A stretch of 64,000 nt of DNA from Nitrosomonas sp. (lineage in GTDB: Bacteria > Pseudomonadota > Gammaproteobacteria > Burkholderiales > Nitrosomonadaceae), in contig CP091135.1 of assembly GCA_021582655.1 (NCBI GenBank), positions 293,078-357,077 of the forward strand. The letters run 5' to 3'. The translations under genes and the position numbers were made by a program. The notes beneath the pieces are model-generated. The model was given only the letters and a program-made list of their open reading frames with translations. It was not told the DNA's origin and did not search any database. Shown here piece after piece: positions 17,533 through 60,998 of this stretch (within the stretch, counting starts at the first letter, position 1; the number at the start of each line of letters is the position of its first letter).

Positions 17533-20400
17533 TCACATCTGCCGATTCGGAACTTGACCGATCCAAGTCGCATCCGGTTTCCAGGAAGCGATCCAACTGA
17601 GGAATTGACTCGCCGGCATCGGTTTGGCGATACCGTAACCTTGCCCGTAAATACAGCCGAGTGAAAGCAATGCAGTACCGTGTGCAACCGTTTCAACGCC
17701 TTCTGCGATGACTCTGCGCCGAAAAGAATCGGCCAGACCGATAACACCCCGGACAATACTCATGTCGTCGGGATCAAACAGCATGTCGCGCACAAAGCTC
17801 TGGTCGATCTTCAAGTACTCGATCGGTAATCGACGTAAATAGGTAAGCGATGAATAACCGGTACCAAAATCATCCAGCGCGAAACTGACTCCCAGCGCAC
17901 AACAATCCCTCATGGTGCGTGATACTTTGACGATGTCATCGAGCGCACTGGTCTCCAGTACTTCGAGTTGCAATAATGCAGGTGTAACATCCGGATATTG
18001 CGCCAGCAAGCCGGCGAGCAGGTTGACAAAATTATCGTCTTGCAATTGATAAGCGCCGATGTTGACACTCAACAAGAACCGCAACCCGAGCCGCTGCCAT
18101 ACGGCGATTTGCGCCAGTACCGAGACGATAGTCCATTGGCCGATTTCCATCGCGACAGGTTGGTTTTCAATCAAAGGCAGGAAATCTCCTGGCAGCAACA
18201 GACCACGCTCGGGGTGATGCCAGCGGATCAGAGCTTCGGCACCGATTACCTCGCCGGTTTGCATATTGACTTTAGGCTGGTAATACATTTCAAACTCCCC
18301 GCGCTCGATAGCATTACGTGCATACATCAGCATCACATTTTTATTGCGCTGCCATTCGTCAAGGGCCACATCGAAAAGATGATAGCGGTTCTTGCCCGCC
18401 TGCTTGGCGGCATACATGGCTTGATCGGCATGGCGCAGCAATTGATCGACATCGACCTTATCCTTCGGATACACGGTAACCCCCATACTGGCCGAGACTT
18501 GCAATGTAAGCTCGCCTACCTTGATCGGACTGGCCGCTGCCGCGAGTAAGCGCTGCAAAATCAGCTCATAGTCACTCATATTTTCAAGATCGCCGAGCAC
18601 GGCGACAAATTCGTCGCCGCCAATGCGAGCCAATGTATCGCCTTTTCGCAATGATTCCTTCATCCGATCAGCCAAGGCGATCAGTAATTGATCCCCGGTC
18701 TCATGACCATGGCTGTCGTTCACCGTCTTAAAACCGTCGAGATCAAGATAGGCGATGGCCATCGATTGCTGTCGGTGGTTGCATTGAATCATCGCTTGCT
18801 GCAACCGATCGCTCAACAAATTACGATTAGGCAATCCGGTCAACCGATCATGATAAGCGGCGTACTCAAGTTGCTGACGATGTTCGTATTCAACCGTAAT
18901 ATCAGAGATGATGGCAACATAATTGCGGATCTTGTCGTCAGCATCCCGGACTGTGCTGATTGTCTGGTGGGTGGCGAACAGCTTGCCACTCTTATCCAGG
19001 TTCCACAGTTCACCGGACCAATAACCGGTATCATTAATTTTTTGCCAGATATCGTGATAGAGCGCTTGAGTTTGCTGCTCGGAATGCAGCATTTGCGGGG
19101 TTTTGCCGATAAGTTCCGCGCGCGTATACCCGGTGATACGGCAATACGCTTCATTGACATCAAGAATGACGGTATCCGGCGCGGTAATCGCGATGCCTTC
19201 ACGCGCGTGAGTAAACACATTGGCGGCGAGCCGAAGTGCCTCCTCATCCTGCTTGCGCCTGGTCACATCGACCATCAAGCCGCGCAGCCAACGCGGTTCA
19301 CCGTTTTCGGCAACGACAGTCACAATGTCGTGCAGCCAGACGGTACGTCCATCCCTGGCAATGAAGCGATATTCGAAATCATGCCACTCGAGGCGTTTCG
19401 TACAGGACGCGCAATAATCCGGCACCCAGGCTCGATCGTCAGGATGCAGGTGTTCGATCCAAAAGCCTGGCGCAAGCCAATCCTCGCACGGAAACCCAAA
19501 TAAGCGCTCGGCTTGTTCACTGACAAAAGTAAACGCAAAAGTACGCGCATCAGCTTCCCAAACAATACCTTCAACCGATTGAATCAGCGACGACAATCGC
19601 GACTTCGAGGCCTCCAGTTCAGCTTGGATGCGATGCCGTTCGGTTACTTCGCGCGACACTACGATAAAGCGCGATGCATCACCGGCATCAACCCCTTTGC
19701 GTGCGACCGACAATTCGAACCAGTGCTCGCCGCTGGGCAAATCGAGGCGAAACTGCCGTCCGTGAGAAAAACCCGTCCGATGTGCTTCATCTATCGCCGC
19801 CATCACCACTTGTGTCGCTTCAAACGGCAATACTTCCGCAACGGTTTTATTCAACAGTACGTGCGGCGGGGCCGCGAGCAGCTCGGTACGCGGTGAATGA
19901 TAATCGTAGTAACGCCCGTCCTTGCCAAGTTCGAAGAGTAGATCAGGGATCGCGTCCAATGTGCTGGCCAGGGCTTGCTGTGTTTCCAGCAAGAGATTTT
20001 CGATCCGTTTGCGGTGACTGACATCGTGAAAATTAACCACTACCTGCTCAAGCCGCCCATCACTCGCAAATTCGGGAAACGCGCTGATAAGTACCCAAGT
20101 CACCTCGGTTTTGTCAGTACGGTGTATGCCAAGCATCAGCTCCCGGATTGGTTGGTGCGTGGCGATTACATGATTGACCGGATTTTCCTCCGGTACCAAC
20201 CGCCTGCCCTTTTCGTCGACAAAATACCACGTCGGATCAACCGTTAACCTGCCGGCTATCGAATCCGCGGGTAGACCAAGCAACTCAGCGGCGCGGCGAT
20301 TGCTGAAACTGACGGTCATATCCGCATCATGCACGATAATCCCGGTATGCAGATTTTGCAGCAAACGTGCGTAGCGATTGTTCATACGGTTACTGACCAA
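17533..20400 (-). CDS. Multi-PAS GGDEF-EAL protein
   Basis: About four PAS domains, RKGD I-site plus GGDEF, EALIRW, LDDFGTG, KIDQSF. Confidence 0.95.
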   Translation of the reverse strand: MVSNRMNNRYARLLQNLHTGIIVHDADMTVSFSNRRAAELLGLPADSIAGRLTVDPTWYFVDEKGRRLVPEENPVNHVIATHQPIRELMLGIHRTDKTEVTWVLISAFPEFASDGRLEQVVVNFHDVSHRKRIENLLLETQQALASTLDAIPDLLFELGKDGRYYDYHSPRTELLAAPPHVLLNKTVAEVLPFEATQVVMAAIDEAHRTGFSHGRQFRLDLPSGEHWFELSVARKGVDAGDASRFIVVSREVTERHRIQAELEASKSRLSSLIQSVEGIVWEADARTFAFTFVSEQAERLFGFPCEDWLAPGFWIEHLHPDDRAWVPDYCASCTKRLEWHDFEYRFIARDGRTVWLHDIVTVVAENGEPRWLRGLMVDVTRRKQDEEALRLAANVFTHAREGIAITAPDTVILDVNEAYCRITGYTRAELIGKTPQMLHSEQQTQALYHDIWQKINDTGYWSGELWNLDKSGKLFATHQTISTVRDADDKIRNYVAIISDITVEYEHRQQLEYAAYHDRLTGLPNRNLLSDRLQQAMIQCNHRQQSMAIAYLDLDGFKTVNDSHGHETGDQLLIALADRMKESLRKGDTLARIGGDEFVAVLGDLENMSDYELILQRLLAAAASPIKVGELTLQVSASMGVTVYPKDKVDVDQLLRHADQAMYAAKQAGKNRYHLFDVALDEWQRNKNVMLMYARNAIERGEFEMYYQPKVNMQTGEVIGAEALIRWHHPERGLLLPGDFLPLIENQPVAMEIGQWTIVSVLAQIAVWQRLGLRFLLSVNIGAYQLQDDNFVNLLAGLLAQYPDVTPALLQLEVLETSALDDIVKVSRTMRDCCALGVSFALDDFGTGYSSLTYLRRLPIEYLKIDQSFVRDMLFDPDDMSIVRGVIGLADSFRRRVIAEGVETVAHGTALLSLGCIYGQGYGIAKPMPASQFLSWIASWKPDATWIGQVPNRQM

Positions 20401-53833: not shown

Positions 53834-55048
53834 ATGGATAGCGCATCCGACATCAAGATTCTGATCCTGGACGATGACACCTTCATGCTTAAGCTCCTGA
53901 CCAAAATGCTGGCCAAGTTGGGTTATACCGCCGTCATCACCTGTGACAACGGCTCAGATGCACTGAAAAAGCTCGACCAAGCCGATACCTCCCCGGATTT
54001 GATTTTACTGGATTTAAATATGCCGGACATGGATGGCATCGAATTCGTCCGTCATTTGGTCGAGCGCAATTATCTCGGCAAGTTGATTTTGGTCAGCGGT
54101 GAAGACGAGCGCATGCTCAGGACCGCGGAAAAATTGGTGCATGCGCATAAAATTCCGATGCTCGGCTATCTGCACAAACCGGTGGATTCCGGCAAGCTCG
54201 CCGAGATGCTGCATCATTGGGAAATCGATACGCTGGCAAATCCCGCGTCGGCTAGCAAAAAAATATACAGCGCGGATGATATCAAAGCAGCCATCAACAA
54301 CCGTGAATTGGTCAATTATTATCAACCCAAAGTCGCTGTAGCCACCGGAGAAGTCATCGGTGTGGAAACTTTAGTGCGGTGGCTGCATCCGCAAGACGGC
54401 TTGATCGCTCCCGACCGGTTTATCCATGTCGCCGAGAAAAACCACCTGATCGACGATCTAACCCGGCTGGTACTGGCACAAGCTGTAGCTCAAGCGGGAA
54501 AATGGCATCGCGAGGGACAAACGCTACGGGTATCGGTCAACGTAACCATGGATAATCTGGCTTCGCTGGATTTTCAAGATGAAGTCTTCAATCTGGTCAG
54601 TGAAAATAACTTGCCACCGCAAAAAATCGTCATTGAGATTACCGAAAGCCAGGTTATGGGACCGGATGCGCGCGTGCCGTTGGAAATTCTGACGCGCCTG
54701 CGGCTCAAGCGATTTCATTTGTCGATCGACGATTTCGGTACCGGGCACTCATCATTGGCGCAATTGCGCGACATTCCGTTTAACGAGCTCAAGATCGACC
54801 AAGGTTTCGTACACCGCGCTTGGGAGGACGATACGCTCCGTGCGATTTACGATGCCAGTCTGGCGATGGGCAAACAACTGGGAATGGACATCGTCGCGGA
54901 AGGTGTCGAAGACCGCAATGACTGGGAGTTGCTCCACGATACCGGATGCGATATGGCGCAAGGCAACTTCATTTCACCCCCCTTCCCTGCCGAAGATTTC
55001 TCCCGCTGGCTGTCGGAATGGAAAAACCGGTTTGAAGCCGGTTTATAA
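53834..55048 (+). CDS. REC-EAL response regulator phosphodiesterase
   Basis: ILDDD, LLDLNMP-x-MDG, ETLVRW (EAL variant), IDDFGTG, KID. Confidence 0.92.
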   Translation: MDSASDIKILILDDDTFMLKLLTKMLAKLGYTAVITCDNGSDALKKLDQADTSPDLILLDLNMPDMDGIEFVRHLVERNYLGKLILVSGEDERMLRTAEKLVHAHKIPMLGYLHKPVDSGKLAEMLHHWEIDTLANPASASKKIYSADDIKAAINNRELVNYYQPKVAVATGEVIGVETLVRWLHPQDGLIAPDRFIHVAEKNHLIDDLTRLVLAQAVAQAGKWHREGQTLRVSVNVTMDNLASLDFQDEVFNLVSENNLPPQKIVIEITESQVMGPDARVPLEILTRLRLKRFHLSIDDFGTGHSSLAQLRDIPFNELKIDQGFVHRAWEDDTLRAIYDASLAMGKQLGMDIVAEGVEDRNDWELLHDTGCDMAQGNFISPPFPAEDFSRWLSEWKNRFEAGL

Positions 55049-55075
55049 CTCCCTTGCGTCAATAGAAGCTGGAAA

Positions 55076-55531
55076 TCAAGTTCGGCATGCGCCTAGCGAC
55101 AAATGCGGCGCTGCTTCCCGTTGCCGCTGCAAATCGCGTACGATAGCGCGGATTTTATTCAACAGAATGGTCATGTGGTCATAAAATTGATCGCTGGCGA
55201 TGAGCTGATGCCATTCGTCACCGTCTGGATCGACTTCATCCAAAGTACGCCAGAAAAGATTGCAAAAGCGATCAAACGAAACCGGCCTTCCTTCCATAAG
55301 ATGTGCTTTCGTTTGCGGATCAATCCATTGCTTGCGCCGCTCAATCAATTCTTCCGCGCCGTCAATCACGACAACTGTAAGGTAATGGTACAAATCGGAG
55401 GTACTTAGCAAGCTTTCCAGCACCGAAGTTTTTTGCAAGGCGATTGCATTAGCAATCAAATCTTGCAGTGCGTCTGTCGAAATTTTAAGGCTGGCACCCG
55501 TTTTCAGTATATAAATTTTATCGAGGTACAT
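55076..55531 (-). CDS. Hypothetical protein
   Basis: Helical 151-aa ORF from MYLDKIY; co-oriented with upstream genes. Confidence 0.65.
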   Translation of the reverse strand: MYLDKIYILKTGASLKISTDALQDLIANAIALQKTSVLESLLSTSDLYHYLTVVVIDGAEELIERRKQWIDPQTKAHLMEGRPVSFDRFCNLFWRTLDEVDPDGDEWHQLIASDQFYDHMTILLNKIRAIVRDLQRQREAAPHLSLGACRT

Positions 55532-55631
55532 ATCAATAAACACCCAGTAACAAACCGAAATCGATGTGCGATTCGATTGAAAATCAAGTCTAAGGTTCAT
55601 TCTTCCTGGCATTGTTCCAGAAACAACCGCT

Positions 55632-56171
55632 TTATTCGTAGCGGATGAAATTTTCCGCCAACGCGTCGGCACCATGCTGGTTGATCAGCGAATCGATCTC
55701 TGCGAGCAGATCGTCGTCTTCGTCTTCATCAAGCACGCCCTCACCGACCAAGCTTGCAGTCAATCCCGAAATCATCGCTGCTCTGACTGCACCCAATGTT
55801 GGCGGATACTCGGCCTCCTGACCATTGATCACGGCATCGATCACCCGTGACAAGGGTTCGCTGGCAGCTTCTTGAACAAAATCAATTGCTAATGCGGTAT
55901 CACCGAATTCGTCGATCAGTGCATTCAATTCATCAAGTAGCGATTCGTTGACATCAAAGCGATGCAATTGCTCCGCCTCGGTAAATGCTTCCGTCAGTAT
56001 ACCGGCGACAAAATCGCGCATCGTGGCGAGCGTGATATCCTGCTCGAGTTCCGCGCGATTCAGTCGGCTGGCGATCAACGCGGATAAATTGGGGCTCACG
56101 CGGGTTGAGACATCAATTGAATTTCGAATCATGACAGACTCCTGTTTTGTTAACACATCCATTATCATCAT
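55632..56171 (-). CDS. Acidic hypothetical protein with two internal repeats
   Basis: Two ~77-aa units ending LLDELNALIDEFGDTALAIDF and LLAEIDSLINQHGADALAENF. Confidence 0.7.
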   Translation of the reverse strand: MMIMDVLTKQESVMIRNSIDVSTRVSPNLSALIASRLNRAELEQDITLATMRDFVAGILTEAFTEAEQLHRFDVNESLLDELNALIDEFGDTALAIDFVQEAASEPLSRVIDAVINGQEAEYPPTLGAVRAAMISGLTASLVGEGVLDEDEDDDLLAEIDSLINQHGADALAENFIRYE

Positions 56172-56174
56172 TTC

Positions 56175-56819
56175 TCAGTGTGCGGACGGCAGCTTGGCAC
56201 CCACCAGACAAGCAATCACTTCCTCATCGTCGATCTGTGGAAAATCCCGATAAAACTGTCCTACCGCATAGAAATCTTCCGGTGACGACAAACAAAAAAT
56301 TCGATCCGCTTTGCCGTGCAATTTTACGAGTGTTTCCGGCGGTGCCACCGGTACCGCGCAGATCAATTCGGCGGGTTTTCTGTTGCGCAAGGCATGCAGT
56401 GCGGCGATCATCGTCGATCCGGTCGCCAAACCGTCATCAATGACGATCACAATGCGCCCGGCGGGATCGACCGGCGGATGCGCCGGAGTATATTGCGCAC
56501 GCCGCCTCCGGATGGTATCCAATTGCTTATTTTTCTCATGCTCGAGATAGGCATCGTCCGCGCCTGACCGGCCGGCGTACTCAGTCAAATAAACCCAGCC
56601 GCTTTCATCGACCGAACCGATGGCGAACTCGGGATTATCGGGTGCACGCAATTTGCGCACCAGCACCACGTCCATTTCGCCATGCAATTGCTCCGCAATC
56701 ACTTTGGCCATCGGCACCGCACCACGCGGAATGGCCAGAATCAAAGGATTTTTACCGCGATAAGCGGCAAGTGCGTCGACCAGCTTGCAGGCAGCGTCCA
56801 TGCGATCTGCGAATATCAT
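56175..56819 (-). CDS. Type I phosphoribosyltransferase (Rv0571c/Rv2030c N-domain type)
   Basis: FADR-x-x-A, IPRGAVP, VRKL-x-AP..E-x-AIG, VIDDGLATGST, AVGQFY..F-x-Q. Confidence 0.9.
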   Translation of the reverse strand: MIFADRMDAACKLVDALAAYRGKNPLILAIPRGAVPMAKVIAEQLHGEMDVVLVRKLRAPDNPEFAIGSVDESGWVYLTEYAGRSGADDAYLEHEKNKQLDTIRRRRAQYTPAHPPVDPAGRIVIVIDDGLATGSTMIAALHALRNRKPAELICAVPVAPPETLVKLHGKADRIFCLSSPEDFYAVGQFYRDFPQIDDEEVIACLVGAKLPSAH

Positions 56820-56863
56820 GACTGATTCCTCCTTTATTTGCCGCTGCATCATCATACCCGGAA

Positions 56864-56877
56864 TTGATTTATCGCAA
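56864..56877. promoter_or_regulatory. FNR/FixK-type box in the divergent PRTase/archease promoter region
   Basis: TTGATTTATCGCAA fits TTG(A/C)-N6-(T/G)CAA; 8/10 match to TTGAT-N4-ATCAA. Confidence 0.55.
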
Positions 56878-56951
56878 CAATCGTACAGATAAATGCTTAT
56901 CCATGCGCGAAACGGCTACAATCAGCGTCCTGGTATTCTACACACTCGATT

Positions 56952-57359
56952 ATGAGCGCTTCGTACTTCGAACATGATGCCGACATCGGCATCATAGGCC
57001 TTGGCCTCACGCTAGAACAATCATTTGAAGCGGCCGCACACGCAGTCTTTGCCATCATGACCGATTTAAGCGCTGTACATCCCACCGATGGCGTCGGCAT
57101 TGATTTTATCGAACCGGATATTGAATTGGCGCTGGTCGTCTGGCTTAATCAAATCCTCGGAAAGGCGCGCGAATCCGGCATGGTGTTCAGTCACTTCTAT
57201 ATTCATCGCGATGGCGATCATTGGCGCGGAAAAATACTCGGGGAAAAATGGCGCGATGATCTGGAGCGCGGCGTCGAAGTGAAAGGAGCGACGCTGACCA
57301 TGCTATCGGTCAAACGAAGCGGCCCGATCTGGGAATCCCGGTGCGTGGTGGACGTATGA
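56952..57359 (+). CDS. Archease
   Basis: YFEHDADIGI, EVKGAT, C-terminal VVDV; ATGA overlap with rtcB. Confidence 0.92.
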   Translation: MSASYFEHDADIGIIGLGLTLEQSFEAAAHAVFAIMTDLSAVHPTDGVGIDFIEPDIELALVVWLNQILGKARESGMVFSHFYIHRDGDHWRGKILGEKWRDDLERGVEVKGATLTMLSVKRSGPIWESRCVVDV

Positions 57360-58783
57360 ACATTGAACGATTAACCGCATTACACCCTTATTTGTGGACG
57401 CTGTCCAAAGCGTCCGGCGAAAAACGCGCCGAGGTGCTGCTGTACGGCAACCGATCGTTGCTCGAAAGCATGGATGACAAAGTACTGGAACAAATTGCCC
57501 ATGTCGCTGCACTACCCGGTCTGATCGATGCTGCGATGACCATGCCGGATGCACATTGGGGCTATGGTTTTCCCATCGGCGGCGTGGCTGCATTCGATGC
57601 CGACTACGGCGGCATCATCTCCGCAGGCGGTGTCGGATTCGATATCTCTTGCGGCATCCGGTTCCTGCGCAGCGATCTTACCGTGCATGACGCGACACCT
57701 GCACTGAGCCGATTGGCCGACCGTCTGTTTGCCGCCATTCCGGCCGGTGTCGGTGAACAAGGCCATCTCCGGTTGAGTCTCAGGGAACTCGACCAAGTAT
57801 TGCTGGATGGCGCGCATTGGGCAGCCCGACAAGGCTACGGCAATACGATCGACCTCGACTATGTTGAAGAAAACGGTCGCGTGAGCGGCGCGATTCCCGA
57901 GTATGTTTCCGAACTCGCCAAGAAACGTCAGCTCGGTGAAATGGGCACCCTGGGTTCAGGCAATCATTATCTGGAAGTGCAAGCGGTCGAACGGATTTAC
58001 GATCAAGCCGCCGCGCGAGCATTCGGTCTTTATCAAGGCCAATTGGTCGTGTCGATTCACTGCGGCTCTCGCGGACTCGGACACCAAATCGGTACCGATT
58101 ATCTGATGATGTTGGCCAAAGCCGCCAATCGCCTGGGTATTCAGTTGCCCGACCGGGAATTGGCGTGCGCTCCGATCAAGTCTCCGGAAGGTCGTCAATA
58201 CCTCGGCGCGATGAACGCCGCGATCAACTGCGCATTGGCCAATCGGCAAATCCTGACACACTTGACCCGGGAAACGTTCGCTGAAGTTTATCCGCATACC
58301 GCGCTGGAAACCTTATTCGATATCTCACACAATACTTGCAAGGAAGAAATTCATTCGGTCAACGGCAAAGCGATGCGCTTGCACGTGCATCGCAAGGGAG
58401 CGACGCGTGCTTTTGCGCCGCAACACCCGCGGCTACCCGCCCGCTATCGCGAAGCCGGGCAACCGGTTATCATTGGCGGTAGCATGGGTACCGGTTCGTA
58501 TGTGCTTGCCGGCACCGCCGCCAATCAAGCCTTCGCATCATGCAGTCACGGTGCTGGGCGCGCCATCAGCCGCAACCAGGCATTGAAGCGTTGGCAAGGA
58601 CACACGCTGATCAACGAGCTGCAACAACAAGGCATTTTGATTCGTACCCGCTCCATGCGCGGCGCGGCGGAAGAAGCACCCGGCGCATACAAGGATGTCG
58701 ATCAAGTCGCTGAGGTTACCGAGCAAGCCGGGTTGGCTCGGCGGGTCGCTTTTCTGCGCCCCAAAGTTTGTATCAAAGGATAA
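57356..58783 (+). CDS. rtcB: RNA ligase RtcB
   Basis: MPDAH-x-GYGFPIG, DISCG, GSGNHY, HCGSRG, HN, HRKGAT, HGAGR, EEAPGAYK all intact. Confidence 0.95.
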   Translation: MNIERLTALHPYLWTLSKASGEKRAEVLLYGNRSLLESMDDKVLEQIAHVAALPGLIDAAMTMPDAHWGYGFPIGGVAAFDADYGGIISAGGVGFDISCGIRFLRSDLTVHDATPALSRLADRLFAAIPAGVGEQGHLRLSLRELDQVLLDGAHWAARQGYGNTIDLDYVEENGRVSGAIPEYVSELAKKRQLGEMGTLGSGNHYLEVQAVERIYDQAAARAFGLYQGQLVVSIHCGSRGLGHQIGTDYLMMLAKAANRLGIQLPDRELACAPIKSPEGRQYLGAMNAAINCALANRQILTHLTRETFAEVYPHTALETLFDISHNTCKEEIHSVNGKAMRLHVHRKGATRAFAPQHPRLPARYREAGQPVIIGGSMGTGSYVLAGTAANQAFASCSHGAGRAISRNQALKRWQGHTLINELQQQGILIRTRSMRGAAEEAPGAYKDVDQVAEVTEQAGLARRVAFLRPKVCIKG

Positions 58784-58799
58784 TTTTCAGGAGGCTAGC

Positions 58800-59144
58800 A
58801 TGACGCAAATCAATCTACAGATCACCATGCGGGATATTCCGCATTCCGATGCACTGGAAAACCATATTCGCGAAAAAGCGGAGAAGCTCGAAAGATTTCA
58901 TCCGCATCTGACAAGTTGCCGGGTTGTGATCGAACAGCCGCATAAACACCACCATCAAGGACGCAACTACGAAGTTCATGTCGATCTGACCGCACCGGGG
59001 AGCGAGTTGGTGGTTGACCGTGCAACGCATGAAGACATTTATGTTGCAGTGCGCGATGCTTTTGACGCGGCGGCACGGCAATTGGAAGACTACGCCCGCC
59101 GTCAGCGCGGCGACATCAAAACACACAGCGATAAACGGTCATAA
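58800..59144 (+). CDS. HPF/RaiA-family ribosome-associated protein
   Basis: QITMR..SDALE..EKLE, DIYVAVRDAFD..RQL; GGAGG RBS; 16 bp after rtcB. Confidence 0.9.
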   Translation: MTQINLQITMRDIPHSDALENHIREKAEKLERFHPHLTSCRVVIEQPHKHHHQGRNYEVHVDLTAPGSELVVDRATHEDIYVAVRDAFDAAARQLEDYARRQRGDIKTHSDKRS

Positions 59145-59213
59145 TGTATCGGCCATCATCGGCGGCAATGCAGATCGTTTTTCAACCGCCGGCCGCATAC
59201 CCACCCCGCTCTC

Positions 59214-60998
59214 ATGCCATGCACTAAATTACACCAGCCGATCGGCTGGATACTGGCCGGCTGGCTCATTGCCGGAGGTCTGCCGCCCGCCGATGCGGAA
59301 AACCTCGCTTGCGAGCCGGCGCGCGATGCCAATATCTGGATTTCCCGACCCTATCCCGAGGATGCTCGTGCTATCCGTATCCTGGCGGTTACCACTGATG
59401 CTCCGGCTACCGCACTCATCGTGATCGATCAACACGGCACACAAACACCGCTGCACACACGCCGCCGCGGCGGGCCACCTTGGAGCTTGATCGCGCAATG
59501 GCACACAACGAATGATGAGTCCTATCGGATGCTGCTGCAGCGTGACGGGCAAGTCATCGCCTGCCGCGAATTTTCCGCCAGTGCGGCCTTGACGCCGCTG
59601 CGGTTGCAGACCTGGGATCTTGCCAGCGAAGCATTTTATGCCGCGTGGATCGAAGAACTGTTCGGTGCACCACCGGAAGAAAGTTTCAGCTTCCCGTCTT
59701 TGGAGCCGTTACTGCGTAACCGTGATCGCAACTTCCTGCATAATTACTTAGGGAAAAACGAAGATCACCGCCTGCCGCTTACCCCCGATTGCGCCGATTT
59801 GCCCTATACGCTACGCGCCTATTTTGCCTGGAAAACCGGTCTGCCTTTTGCGTATCGCGCATGTAATCGCGGCAGCGCCAATGCTCCGCCGCAATGCGGA
59901 TCACCATCGGTGATAACGGAATTTGTTCGCGGCGCAAGCTCGCAAGCCGGCTTTAAAACACTAACCCGGCGCCTGGTCGATACCGTGCACTCCGGCTCGG
60001 CACGCACCGGGCATAACGACGAGGCCACCGATTACTATCCGATTCCGCTCAAACGCGAAACCTTATGGCCCGGCACGATTTTCGCCGATCCTTACGGCCA
60101 TATCCTGGTACTCGCCGGATGGGTGCCGCAAACCGCGGATCGACCTGGGATGTTACTTGCAGTCGATGCGCAACCGGATCAATCGGTCGCGCGCAAGCGA
60201 ATTTGGGAAGGTACCGCGTTATTTGCCAATACCGCCAATGCCGGGCCGGGCTTCAAGGCGTTTCGCCCGATAGTCGCATCCTCATCCGGGCAATGGCGCG
60301 GACTGTCGAATCGGGAGCTGAGCGTACAATCCGATTTTATGCCTTATTCATTGGAACAGGCACAACTGGCGCCGGATGGTTTTTATGCCGCGCTGACCCG
60401 GCTGACCAATCCGTACGGCCTGAATCCGCTGCAAGCCTACGAAGCGATGCTCACCGCATTGGTCGAGCAAATCGAAACCCGTGTCAATTCCGTCAACAAT
60501 GGTGAAGCGTATTTTCGCAAACATCCGCGCAATCCGATTGCAATGCCGGGCGGGGCGACGATTTTCCAAACCATCGGTCCGTGGGAAGATTACGCTACGC
60601 CGTCGCGCGACATGCGGCTATTGATCGCGATTAACGTATTGAACGATTTACCCGGTAAAATCCTGCGTCACCCGGATTTGTTCGTGCTGGATGATCGGCA
60701 TCCGCAACAGGCAAGCGACGAAATCGCTCGTCATCACGCCAAACGCACCCGGGAGCGCAGTATTCGTTACACACGTTCGGATGGTAGTGCTTGGGAATTG
60801 ACACTGGCTGAGATCCTGGCACGCAAATCAGCCTTCGAAACTGCATACAATCCCAACGATTGCGTAGAGTTCCGTTGGGGAGCGCTGCCCGATAGCGAAG
60901 AATATGCCTCCTGCAACCGCCGTGCGCCCGCCGAGCAGCGCGCCAAAATGGAGCAATACCGTGTTTGGTTCCGCGAAACGCGCCGACCGGTACCGTAA
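59214..60998 (+). CDS. Secreted hypothetical protein with putative papain/NlpC-P60-like Cys-His-Asp motifs
   Basis: Signal peptide; PDCADLPY-x-LRAYFAWK, DPYGHILV, DAQPD. Confidence 0.65.
   Translation: MPCTKLHQPIGWILAGWLIAGGLPPADAENLACEPARDANIWISRPYPEDARAIRILAVTTDAPATALIVIDQHGTQTPLHTRRRGGPPWSLIAQWHTTNDESYRMLLQRDGQVIACREFSASAALTPLRLQTWDLASEAFYAAWIEELFGAPPEESFSFPSLEPLLRNRDRNFLHNYLGKNEDHRLPLTPDCADLPYTLRAYFAWKTGLPFAYRACNRGSANAPPQCGSPSVITEFVRGASSQAGFKTLTRRLVDTVHSGSARTGHNDEATDYYPIPLKRETLWPGTIFADPYGHILVLAGWVPQTADRPGMLLAVDAQPDQSVARKRIWEGTALFANTANAGPGFKAFRPIVASSSGQWRGLSNRELSVQSDFMPYSLEQAQLAPDGFYAALTRLTNPYGLNPLQAYEAMLTALVEQIETRVNSVNNGEAYFRKHPRNPIAMPGGATIFQTIGPWEDYATPSRDMRLLIAINVLNDLPGKILRHPDLFVLDDRHPQQASDEIARHHAKRTRERSIRYTRSDGSAWELTLAEILARKSAFETAYNPNDCVEFRWGALPDSEEYASCNRRAPAEQRAKMEQYRVWFRETRRPVP

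Follow-up and report, generated by a model that had tools for sequence, protein, structure and literature searches.

A conserved archease-rtcB-hpf locus of Nitrosomonas as a probable variant of lxa/DosR-type low-oxygen persistence islands that may be under FNR control

Why would an ammonia-oxidizing bacterium keep an RNA ligase, its archease and a ribosome hibernation factor behind a single divergent promoter? The question is raised by positions 55076 to 59144 of a 64,000-nucleotide stretch of Nitrosomonas sp. DNA (assembly GCA_021582655.1, contig CP091135.1, positions 293,078 to 357,077), referred to here as the window. An initial annotation described archease, rtcB and hpf on one side of an intergenic gap and a phosphoribosyltransferase (PRTase) followed by two unnamed genes, here U2 and U1, on the other, and proposed a single low-oxygen cassette for RNA repair and ribosome storage. 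The locus is real and conserved, and it is probably a variant of the lxa/DosR type of island for persistence at low oxygen; we do not see in it a new kind of machinery. Control by the oxygen sensor FNR is, judging from the sequence, the likeliest mechanism, with a probability of about 0.55. The assembly is one contig and 83% complete, which limits every statement below that a gene was not found in it.

Genes of the locus and the island around it

All six reading frames are intact, and the closest named records to the locus are Nitrosomonas. Pfam and NCBIfam matches agree with the four gene identities first proposed. On the forward strand are archease (56952-57359; PF01951, 101.7 bits; PDB 1JW3 and 4N2P), an RtcB RNA ligase of the archaeal/Thermus type (57356-58783; PF01139, 547.7 bits over the full-length domain) and HPF (58800-59144; 114 amino acids, matching PF02482 and TIGR00741, the latter over its cut-off). 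The reverse strand carries the PRTase (56175-56819; PF00156, 86.8 bits), U2 (55632-56132; 166 amino acids) and U1 (55076-55531; 151 amino acids). Archease and rtcB overlap through ATGA and hpf starts at 58800, 16 bp past the rtcB stop, as annotated; the gap with the box, put at about 130 bp, measures 132 bp from a PRTase ATG at 56819 that is preceded by a ribosome-binding site. U2 had been placed 3 bp past the PRTase, and 42 bp is more likely: a start at 56132 has an AGGAG ribosome-binding site, and a length of 166 amino acids recurs in 118 of 120 of the matches listed. For U1 the most likely start is 55531, which gives the MYLDK beginning common to its homologues.

The ratio of nonsynonymous to synonymous substitution (dN/dS) was 0.04-0.15 across the six genes in comparisons with three relatives (15 of 18 computable) and 0.09-0.15 for U1, with dS at 0.9-2.4 and synonymous sites close to saturation. 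The six genes are under purifying selection, and a pseudogene or chance cluster was ruled out by these ratios wherever they could be computed.

The setting of the locus became apparent from a survey of 151 Nitrosomonadaceae genomes, 60 of which (window included) encode this type of rtcB; up to 7 kb on each side was fetched for all 59 relatives, some loci being cut by contig ends. Archease was found in 58 of the 60 loci, pncA and pncB in 45 each, USP in 39, PRTase in 35, HPF in 33, polX-PHP in 27, U2 in 19, the gene for BCAM0308 in 13 and U1 in 12. The full island reads U1, U2, PRTase and polX on one arm, diverging from archease, rtcB, USP, HPF fused to a cold-shock domain (CSD), pncA and pncB on the other; in the clade of the window it continues with BCAM0308, CBS and Lon, and the gene order is kept across three genera of the family. 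The six genes of the window occur together in only 6 of the 60 loci, and polX separates the arms in the other five, which marks the window as a pruned copy, probably the remnant of a larger Nitrosomonadaceae island whose parts have been lost independently. The self-contained six-gene cassette of the initial annotation does not survive these counts, nor the presence of U2 in 75 of the 151 genomes, many of them without this rtcB; one of the 75, G075, carries an unpublished flag. The link between the left arm and rtcB does hold in relatives, as PRTase stands beside archease-rtcB in 35 of the 60 family loci. Several records (L230, L233, L236-L239) contain polX fragments, PRTase, U2 and U1 without adjacent archease-rtcB, where the island seems to be decaying piecemeal.

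The gene that follows hpf or pncB in the 13 loci noted above matches NF040826, lxa_BCAM0308 (224.5 against 100 bits), named for the lxa locus of Burkholderia cenocepacia. That locus is switched on by low oxygen and required for survival under anoxia; it has a TGA-N6-TCA motif and overlaps with DosR (PMC3721108). B. cenocepacia is an obligately aerobic betaproteobacterium, and lxa resembles the nitrifier island in its FNR/Anr-like motif and in four families found in both lxa and the full island: BCAM0308, USP, a zinc alcohol dehydrogenase and a cation P-type ATPase family (PMC3721108). The available part of the lxa gene table lists no RtcB, archease or HPF, and the string "ribosom" is absent from the available text; lxa comprises 50 genes with measured induction (PMC3721108). 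None of the four lxa families stands at the window locus.

A parallel with the DosR regulon of Mycobacterium tuberculosis had been drawn at the outset, and it proved stronger than claimed, USP, CBS and pncB being further members of the intact island. Among the DosR genes, we take Rv2630 to be an archease, Rv2626c a CBS protein, and Rv0571c and Rv2030c to be of the TT1426 type. The regulon includes RtcB (Rv2631), a PRTase (Rv0571c), the hibernation factor RafH (Rv0079) and a nicotinamide-recycling gene (Rv0573c) (PMC5309233). The likeness is one of gene content alone: each set combines an RNA ligase with a hibernation factor, a PRTase and NAD salvage. DosR is a two-component regulator of dispersed blocks, in contrast to the one divergent promoter with an FNR-type site in Nitrosomonas.

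Other known systems share single features with the locus. Hibernation factors linked with RtcB in stress operons have already been published (PMC10901736, PMC6514570); the Balon/RaiA/RtcB operons show this same linkage, but the six-gene locus has no Balon, and the available passages on those operons do not include archease, PRTase or FNR control (PMC10901736). Adjacent archease and rtcB genes, the type of RtcB and its intact motifs recall the operons of Pyrococcus horikoshii and Thermus thermophilus, where archease speeds ligation and permits turnover (PMC3973293, PMC4604427); unlike those operons, the Nitrosomonas pair precedes hpf within a stress island. The E. coli rtcBA operon, under RtcR and sigma-54, has only RtcB ligase chemistry in common with it: the RtcB proteins differ in type, and rtcA and rtcR, already reported missing from the window, were not found in the whole assembly. 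We found no published report of FNR-linked archease-rtcB-hpf in nitrifiers in a search that left most subscription papers outside, and PMC6967387 gave no hits for FNR, Usp or hibernation.

The FNR-type site and its promoter context

The box lies in the divergent promoter at 56864-56877 (TTGATTTATCGCAA; TTGAT-N4-CGCAA with the spacer TTAT) and has 8 of 10 consensus bases, with two mismatches to the FNR consensus TTGAT-N4-ATCAA. Its left half is a perfect TTGAT. The pattern TTGM-N6-KCAA occurs 10 times in the window against 10.3 expected, so the box alone is not above chance, and its significance comes from conservation and not from its frequency in the window. TTGAT-N4-CGCAA was found 88-91 nt before archease in 12 of the 16 genomes of the window's RtcB clade (SH-aLRT 99 in a quick tree) and is absent from four; three further records carry it (L031, L035 and L075), and with these included the distance is 86-91 nt. 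Across these 15 loci the halves are invariant around nine different spacers. In 13 ungapped copies all 10 half-site columns were invariant, compared with 4 of 54 flanking columns; these copies were picked for having the box, and the fair conservation figure is 12/16. Outside the halves the window matches relatives at only 36-62% of positions.

Beyond the family, 5 of 28 non-family loci and 5 of 25 at order level have a relaxed box at 30-110 nt upstream of archease, one genome (L105, also L184) being counted in both sets, against a background of 36 of 2164 open reading frames (1.7%; frames crudely called). On an RtcB phylogeny built with FastTree, the boxed loci from outside the family represent at least four additional branches. 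In four of them (L040, L041, L045, L108) a -10-like hexamer facing archease stands 22-23 nt past the box, a distance that corresponds to a class II arrangement, and in L105 the box is followed after 39 nt by TATACT, with the spacing of the window.

The genome encodes an FNR of the [4Fe-4S] type that passes NF008365 (253 against 228 bits) and has the N-terminal cysteines C20, C23 and C29 and an ETVSR recognition helix; its own gene is preceded by a perfect FNR site, TTGATTCAGATCAA. A search of the assembly for the Crp family turned up just one gene besides fnr, and its product has a CRP-like REAVSR helix. Perfect TTGAT-N4-ATCAA sites also occur at contig positions 18408, 709675, 816744 and 1767247, in addition to the one upstream of fnr near 2381130. 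Some precede small genes that we presume to be Mut7-C-like and DksA/TraR-like, and a further site, TTGATATTTTGCAA, precedes what we take to be a cytochrome c oxidase operon.

A predicted -10 hexamer of the archease-rtcB-hpf promoter, TACAAT (56917-56922, forward strand), begins 39 nt past the box and is found at 39-40 nt in 15 of 15 boxed loci. Between the two lies a second, less conserved element, CAGAT-(T/A)AAT-(A/G)C (56886-56897), recognized in the alignment of upstream regions and kept in box-less L126 and L127; it is possibly a site for another regulator. Internal FNR sites were absent from family loci before hpf (0/32), USP (0/39), pncB (0/45) and BCAM0308 (0/13). Promoter and terminator scans gave chance-level results only, and no Rfam family was found in 54500-59600. 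A single RNA run (share 0.05, 37 of 42 contigs below 90% identity) permits no inference on expression of the locus.

A proposed mechanism and its rivals

The mechanism we favor is that the conserved TTGAT-N4-CGCAA site binds FNR, the iron-sulfur sensor of oxygen, and that expression of the genes would rise as oxygen falls. With ammonia oxidation stalled for lack of O2, HPF would, like known members of its family, sit in the tRNA/mRNA cleft and keep 70S ribosomes parked, and archease would make RtcB a multiple-turnover ligase for rejoining rRNA and tRNA broken with 2',3'-cyclic-phosphate or 3'-phosphate ends. The PRTase, which in the full island stands beside pncA-pncB, may by its family serve nucleotide salvage. 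Spacing suggests that the site originally served class II activation of a left arm of polX, PRTase, U2 and U1, and that it might also act on the rtcB arm from about -58.5.

Several observations weigh against this mechanism. Of the 41 other family loci that could be assessed, none has the box 30-110 nt upstream (three contig-end rows dropped; four of the 41 have a box at 170-294 nt), and none of 12 distant loci has it before archease. Every copy of the box also departs from ATCAA at two bases of its right half, CGCAA. In the genome itself, polX, pncA, pncB and the lxa marker BCAM0308, the last apparently lost, were not found. An FNR-site table for an N. oligotropha-like metagenome-assembled genome, which may or may not carry the locus, has no archease or RtcB among the 24 rows available (PMC8510549). 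The initial description of an FNR/FixK-type box is supported in that the site is conserved in the clade and a real FNR is encoded in the genome. Induction by starvation, also anticipated, found no support: after 24 h of ammonia starvation N. multiformis changed three unrelated proteins only, none from the island, in the results available (PMC5960693).

The main rival, which we consider unlikely, is that the FNR site serves the left arm only, archease-rtcB-hpf having a sigma-70 promoter of its own, either constitutive or tied to growth phase, with repair and hibernation as general maintenance. In several relatives the position of the box suits the left arm better than the rtcB arm: six of the 15 boxed loci, the window not among them, have a left-arm TAnnnT at the class II distance of 23 nt. 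For the right arm the 39-nt gap puts the box center near -58.5, some 3 nt from the -61.5 of a class I activator, which counts against the favored mechanism. TACAAT is also kept in the box-less relatives L125-L127, and Nitrosospira has no box and a plain TTGACA-17-TATAGC sigma-70 promoter. Moreover, N. multiformis USP, HPF and isochorismatase (PncA), tags A0904-A0906, were detected in aerated controls in the data available (PMC5960693); these are taken to be island genes from their consecutive order. The Nitrosospira promoter and these detections weigh against the favored mechanism too. Against a site for the left arm alone, the box is kept in 9 of 15 loci without a clear left-arm -10, always 39-40 nt from TACAAT, and in unrelated lineages it faces archease directly.

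It is less probable still that a factor other than FNR occupies the site, or that FNR represses from it, and that the signal is nitric oxide (NO)/nitrite or redox stress in place of low O2. Nitrifiers make NO, the CG of the right half is fixed, and the second conserved element lies beside the box; NnrR-type sites with TTG-C/CGCAA halves also appear in the available part of Table S6 of PMC8510549. The perfect left half argues for FNR, however, as do the Crp-family genes found, FNR itself and one with a CRP-like helix. The most improbable of these explanations is that archease-RtcB mainly undoes RNase damage from toxins or phages, its neighbors being stress genes loosely gathered without common control. 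RtcB systems are discussed as counter-RNase repair in the available text of PMC6514570, RtcB is patchily distributed (in 83 of 401 genomes at order level and 18 of 401 at phylum level), and island parts have been lost independently, but the gene order conserved over three genera speaks against it, no recurring nuclease or defense gene was seen among the clustered neighbors inspected, and the conserved box and the lxa marker would be left unexplained. FNR control at low oxygen remains the reading we prefer.

Individual proteins, neighboring genes and meaning for nitrifiers

RtcB aligned with the P. horikoshii enzyme at E 5e-149 and with that of T. thermophilus at E 8e-144, and its D65, C99, N203-H204, H235, H325, H398 and K474 align with the P. 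horikoshii metal-binding and guanylylation motifs, leaving the active site intact. Archease adjoins rtcB in 58 of the 60 family loci, the remaining two being contig ends. Partners of archease-rtcB in other lineages are a PRPP-synthetase-like gene with PRTase in L045, an FtsH-like protease with BCAM0308 in L046, and HPF-CSD with PRTase in L217. The contig of L097 is labelled Coxiellaceae, and its USP is 100% identical to that of the Nitrosomonas record L100; it is probably misbinned.

The HPF of the window has an HPFcold-type N-terminal domain, and its best PDB match was 9T0Z (HPFcold; E 4e-29, next 8e-10), the closest solved relative. Relatives carry the full HPF-CSD fusion; in the window the CSD is missing, the stop coming at 114 amino acids, and a relative's CSD used as query found no CSD match in the assembly. 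Within the clade, hpf has full-length forms of about 185 amino acids in 5 of 13 loci and short forms in 8. In HPFcold the cold-shock domain shields the anti-Shine-Dalgarno sequence, according to the part of that report available (PMC13392368); as the window HPF ends before the CSD, such shielding is not expected of it. Members of the N. oligotropha group (L116, L118, L120-L122) have an hpf of about 101 codons without the CSD, some with a short polX remnant in the promoter gap. Neither rpoN nor a housekeeping hpf was found in the assembly, likely an assembly gap. The idea that the window hpf encodes the cell's only HPF was dropped, since rpoN is missing too and 5 of 5 relatives examined have two HPF genes.

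The PRTase matched PDB 1WD5 (Thermus TT1426) over its whole length (residues 1-206, E 1e-48), and residues D128, D129, G130, A132, T133 and G134 of its PRPP loop, DDGxATG, are invariant in 36 of 36 rows. U1 and U2 have no Pfam or NCBIfam match. An alignment of the 104 homologues of U1, of which the named ones are all Nitrosomonas or Nitrosomonadaceae, revealed a conserved acidic motif, FWR-x-LDE-x-DPDGDEW, and its predicted structure is confident (pLDDT 89). U2 is acidic (pI 4.05) and all-helical, with two tandem repeats of about 76 amino acids (model pLDDT 73), and belongs to an unnamed family of 541 homologues, or 159 representatives at 50% identity. Foldseek gave no match at E<=0.001 for either protein; in a wide structure search the best Z values, 5.4 for U1 and 6.0 for U2, were within background; and in the Atlas U2 had no usable match and U1 scores were all below 0.9. 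The top structural match of the U2 repeat was YmgB (2OXL_B, Hha/YmgB-like; Z 6.0, rmsd 2.1 over 56 residues), with the next match at Z 5.2. A PDB profile search with U2 reached only E 0.016, and prediction of a PRTase-U2 complex scored 0.00 with the verdict "no answer". A weak Pfam match of U2 to RH1 in 18 of 46 homologues (best E 3e-5) was taken as helical noise.

The two unnamed proteins had been cast as partners in an RNA-repair module, a role at odds with their distribution. In 20 regions picked where U2 is apart from rtcB, U1 follows U2 in 12 and PRTase precedes U2 in 7; outside the family U2 occurs in 4 of 399 class-level genomes, abutting PRTase in one and lying near HPF and PRTase in another. 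U1 and U2 track PRTase and each other, and are probably island passengers tied to PRTase and not to RtcB. A role as RtcB subunits was rejected, both proteins persisting where rtcB is missing. In L227, L231, L244 and others, U2-U1 or U2 alone lies away from the island just after another gene, presumably tyrS-like in the Nitrosomonas genomes named. FNR-type sites were also seen near U2 and the island elsewhere: a perfect one 59 nt before a lone U2 in L228 (genome G007), a relaxed one 132 nt before U2 in L224 (G547, another family), and TTGATAAATGTCAA between hpf and polX in the rearranged island of L246 (G006). A bolder combined proposal, which we regard as doubtful, is that in oligotrophic Nitrosomonas a single asymmetric site acting in both directions would put RNA resealing and ribosome parking directly under FNR, as a program dedicated to surviving anoxia. 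U2, which accompanies PRTase, HPF and FNR boxes in unrelated lineages, would be an unrecognized part of that program, possibly a YmgB/Hha-like or nucleic-acid-mimic regulator.

On the left of the locus, a gene for a receiver-EAL (PvrR-like) phosphodiesterase (53834-55048) converges on U1, and L031 has one in the equivalent position. On the right, 59214-60998 encodes a protein of 594 amino acids, probably exported and without a Pfam or NCBIfam match, which is also found downstream of the island in L031 and L035.

In soils, sediments and wastewater reactors run at low oxygen, ammonia oxidizers live through one anoxic spell after another, and few targets of their FNR are known. If the site is functional, it would name RNA repair, ribosome hibernation and salvage among those targets, and would offer a testable contrast between the oligotropha lineage, which has the box, and Nitrosospira, which does not. 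Two small protein families, U1 and U2, without known function or fold, accompany the locus. A functional site would also support the view that one low-oxygen maintenance toolkit operates under different sensors in mycobacteria, Burkholderia and nitrifiers.

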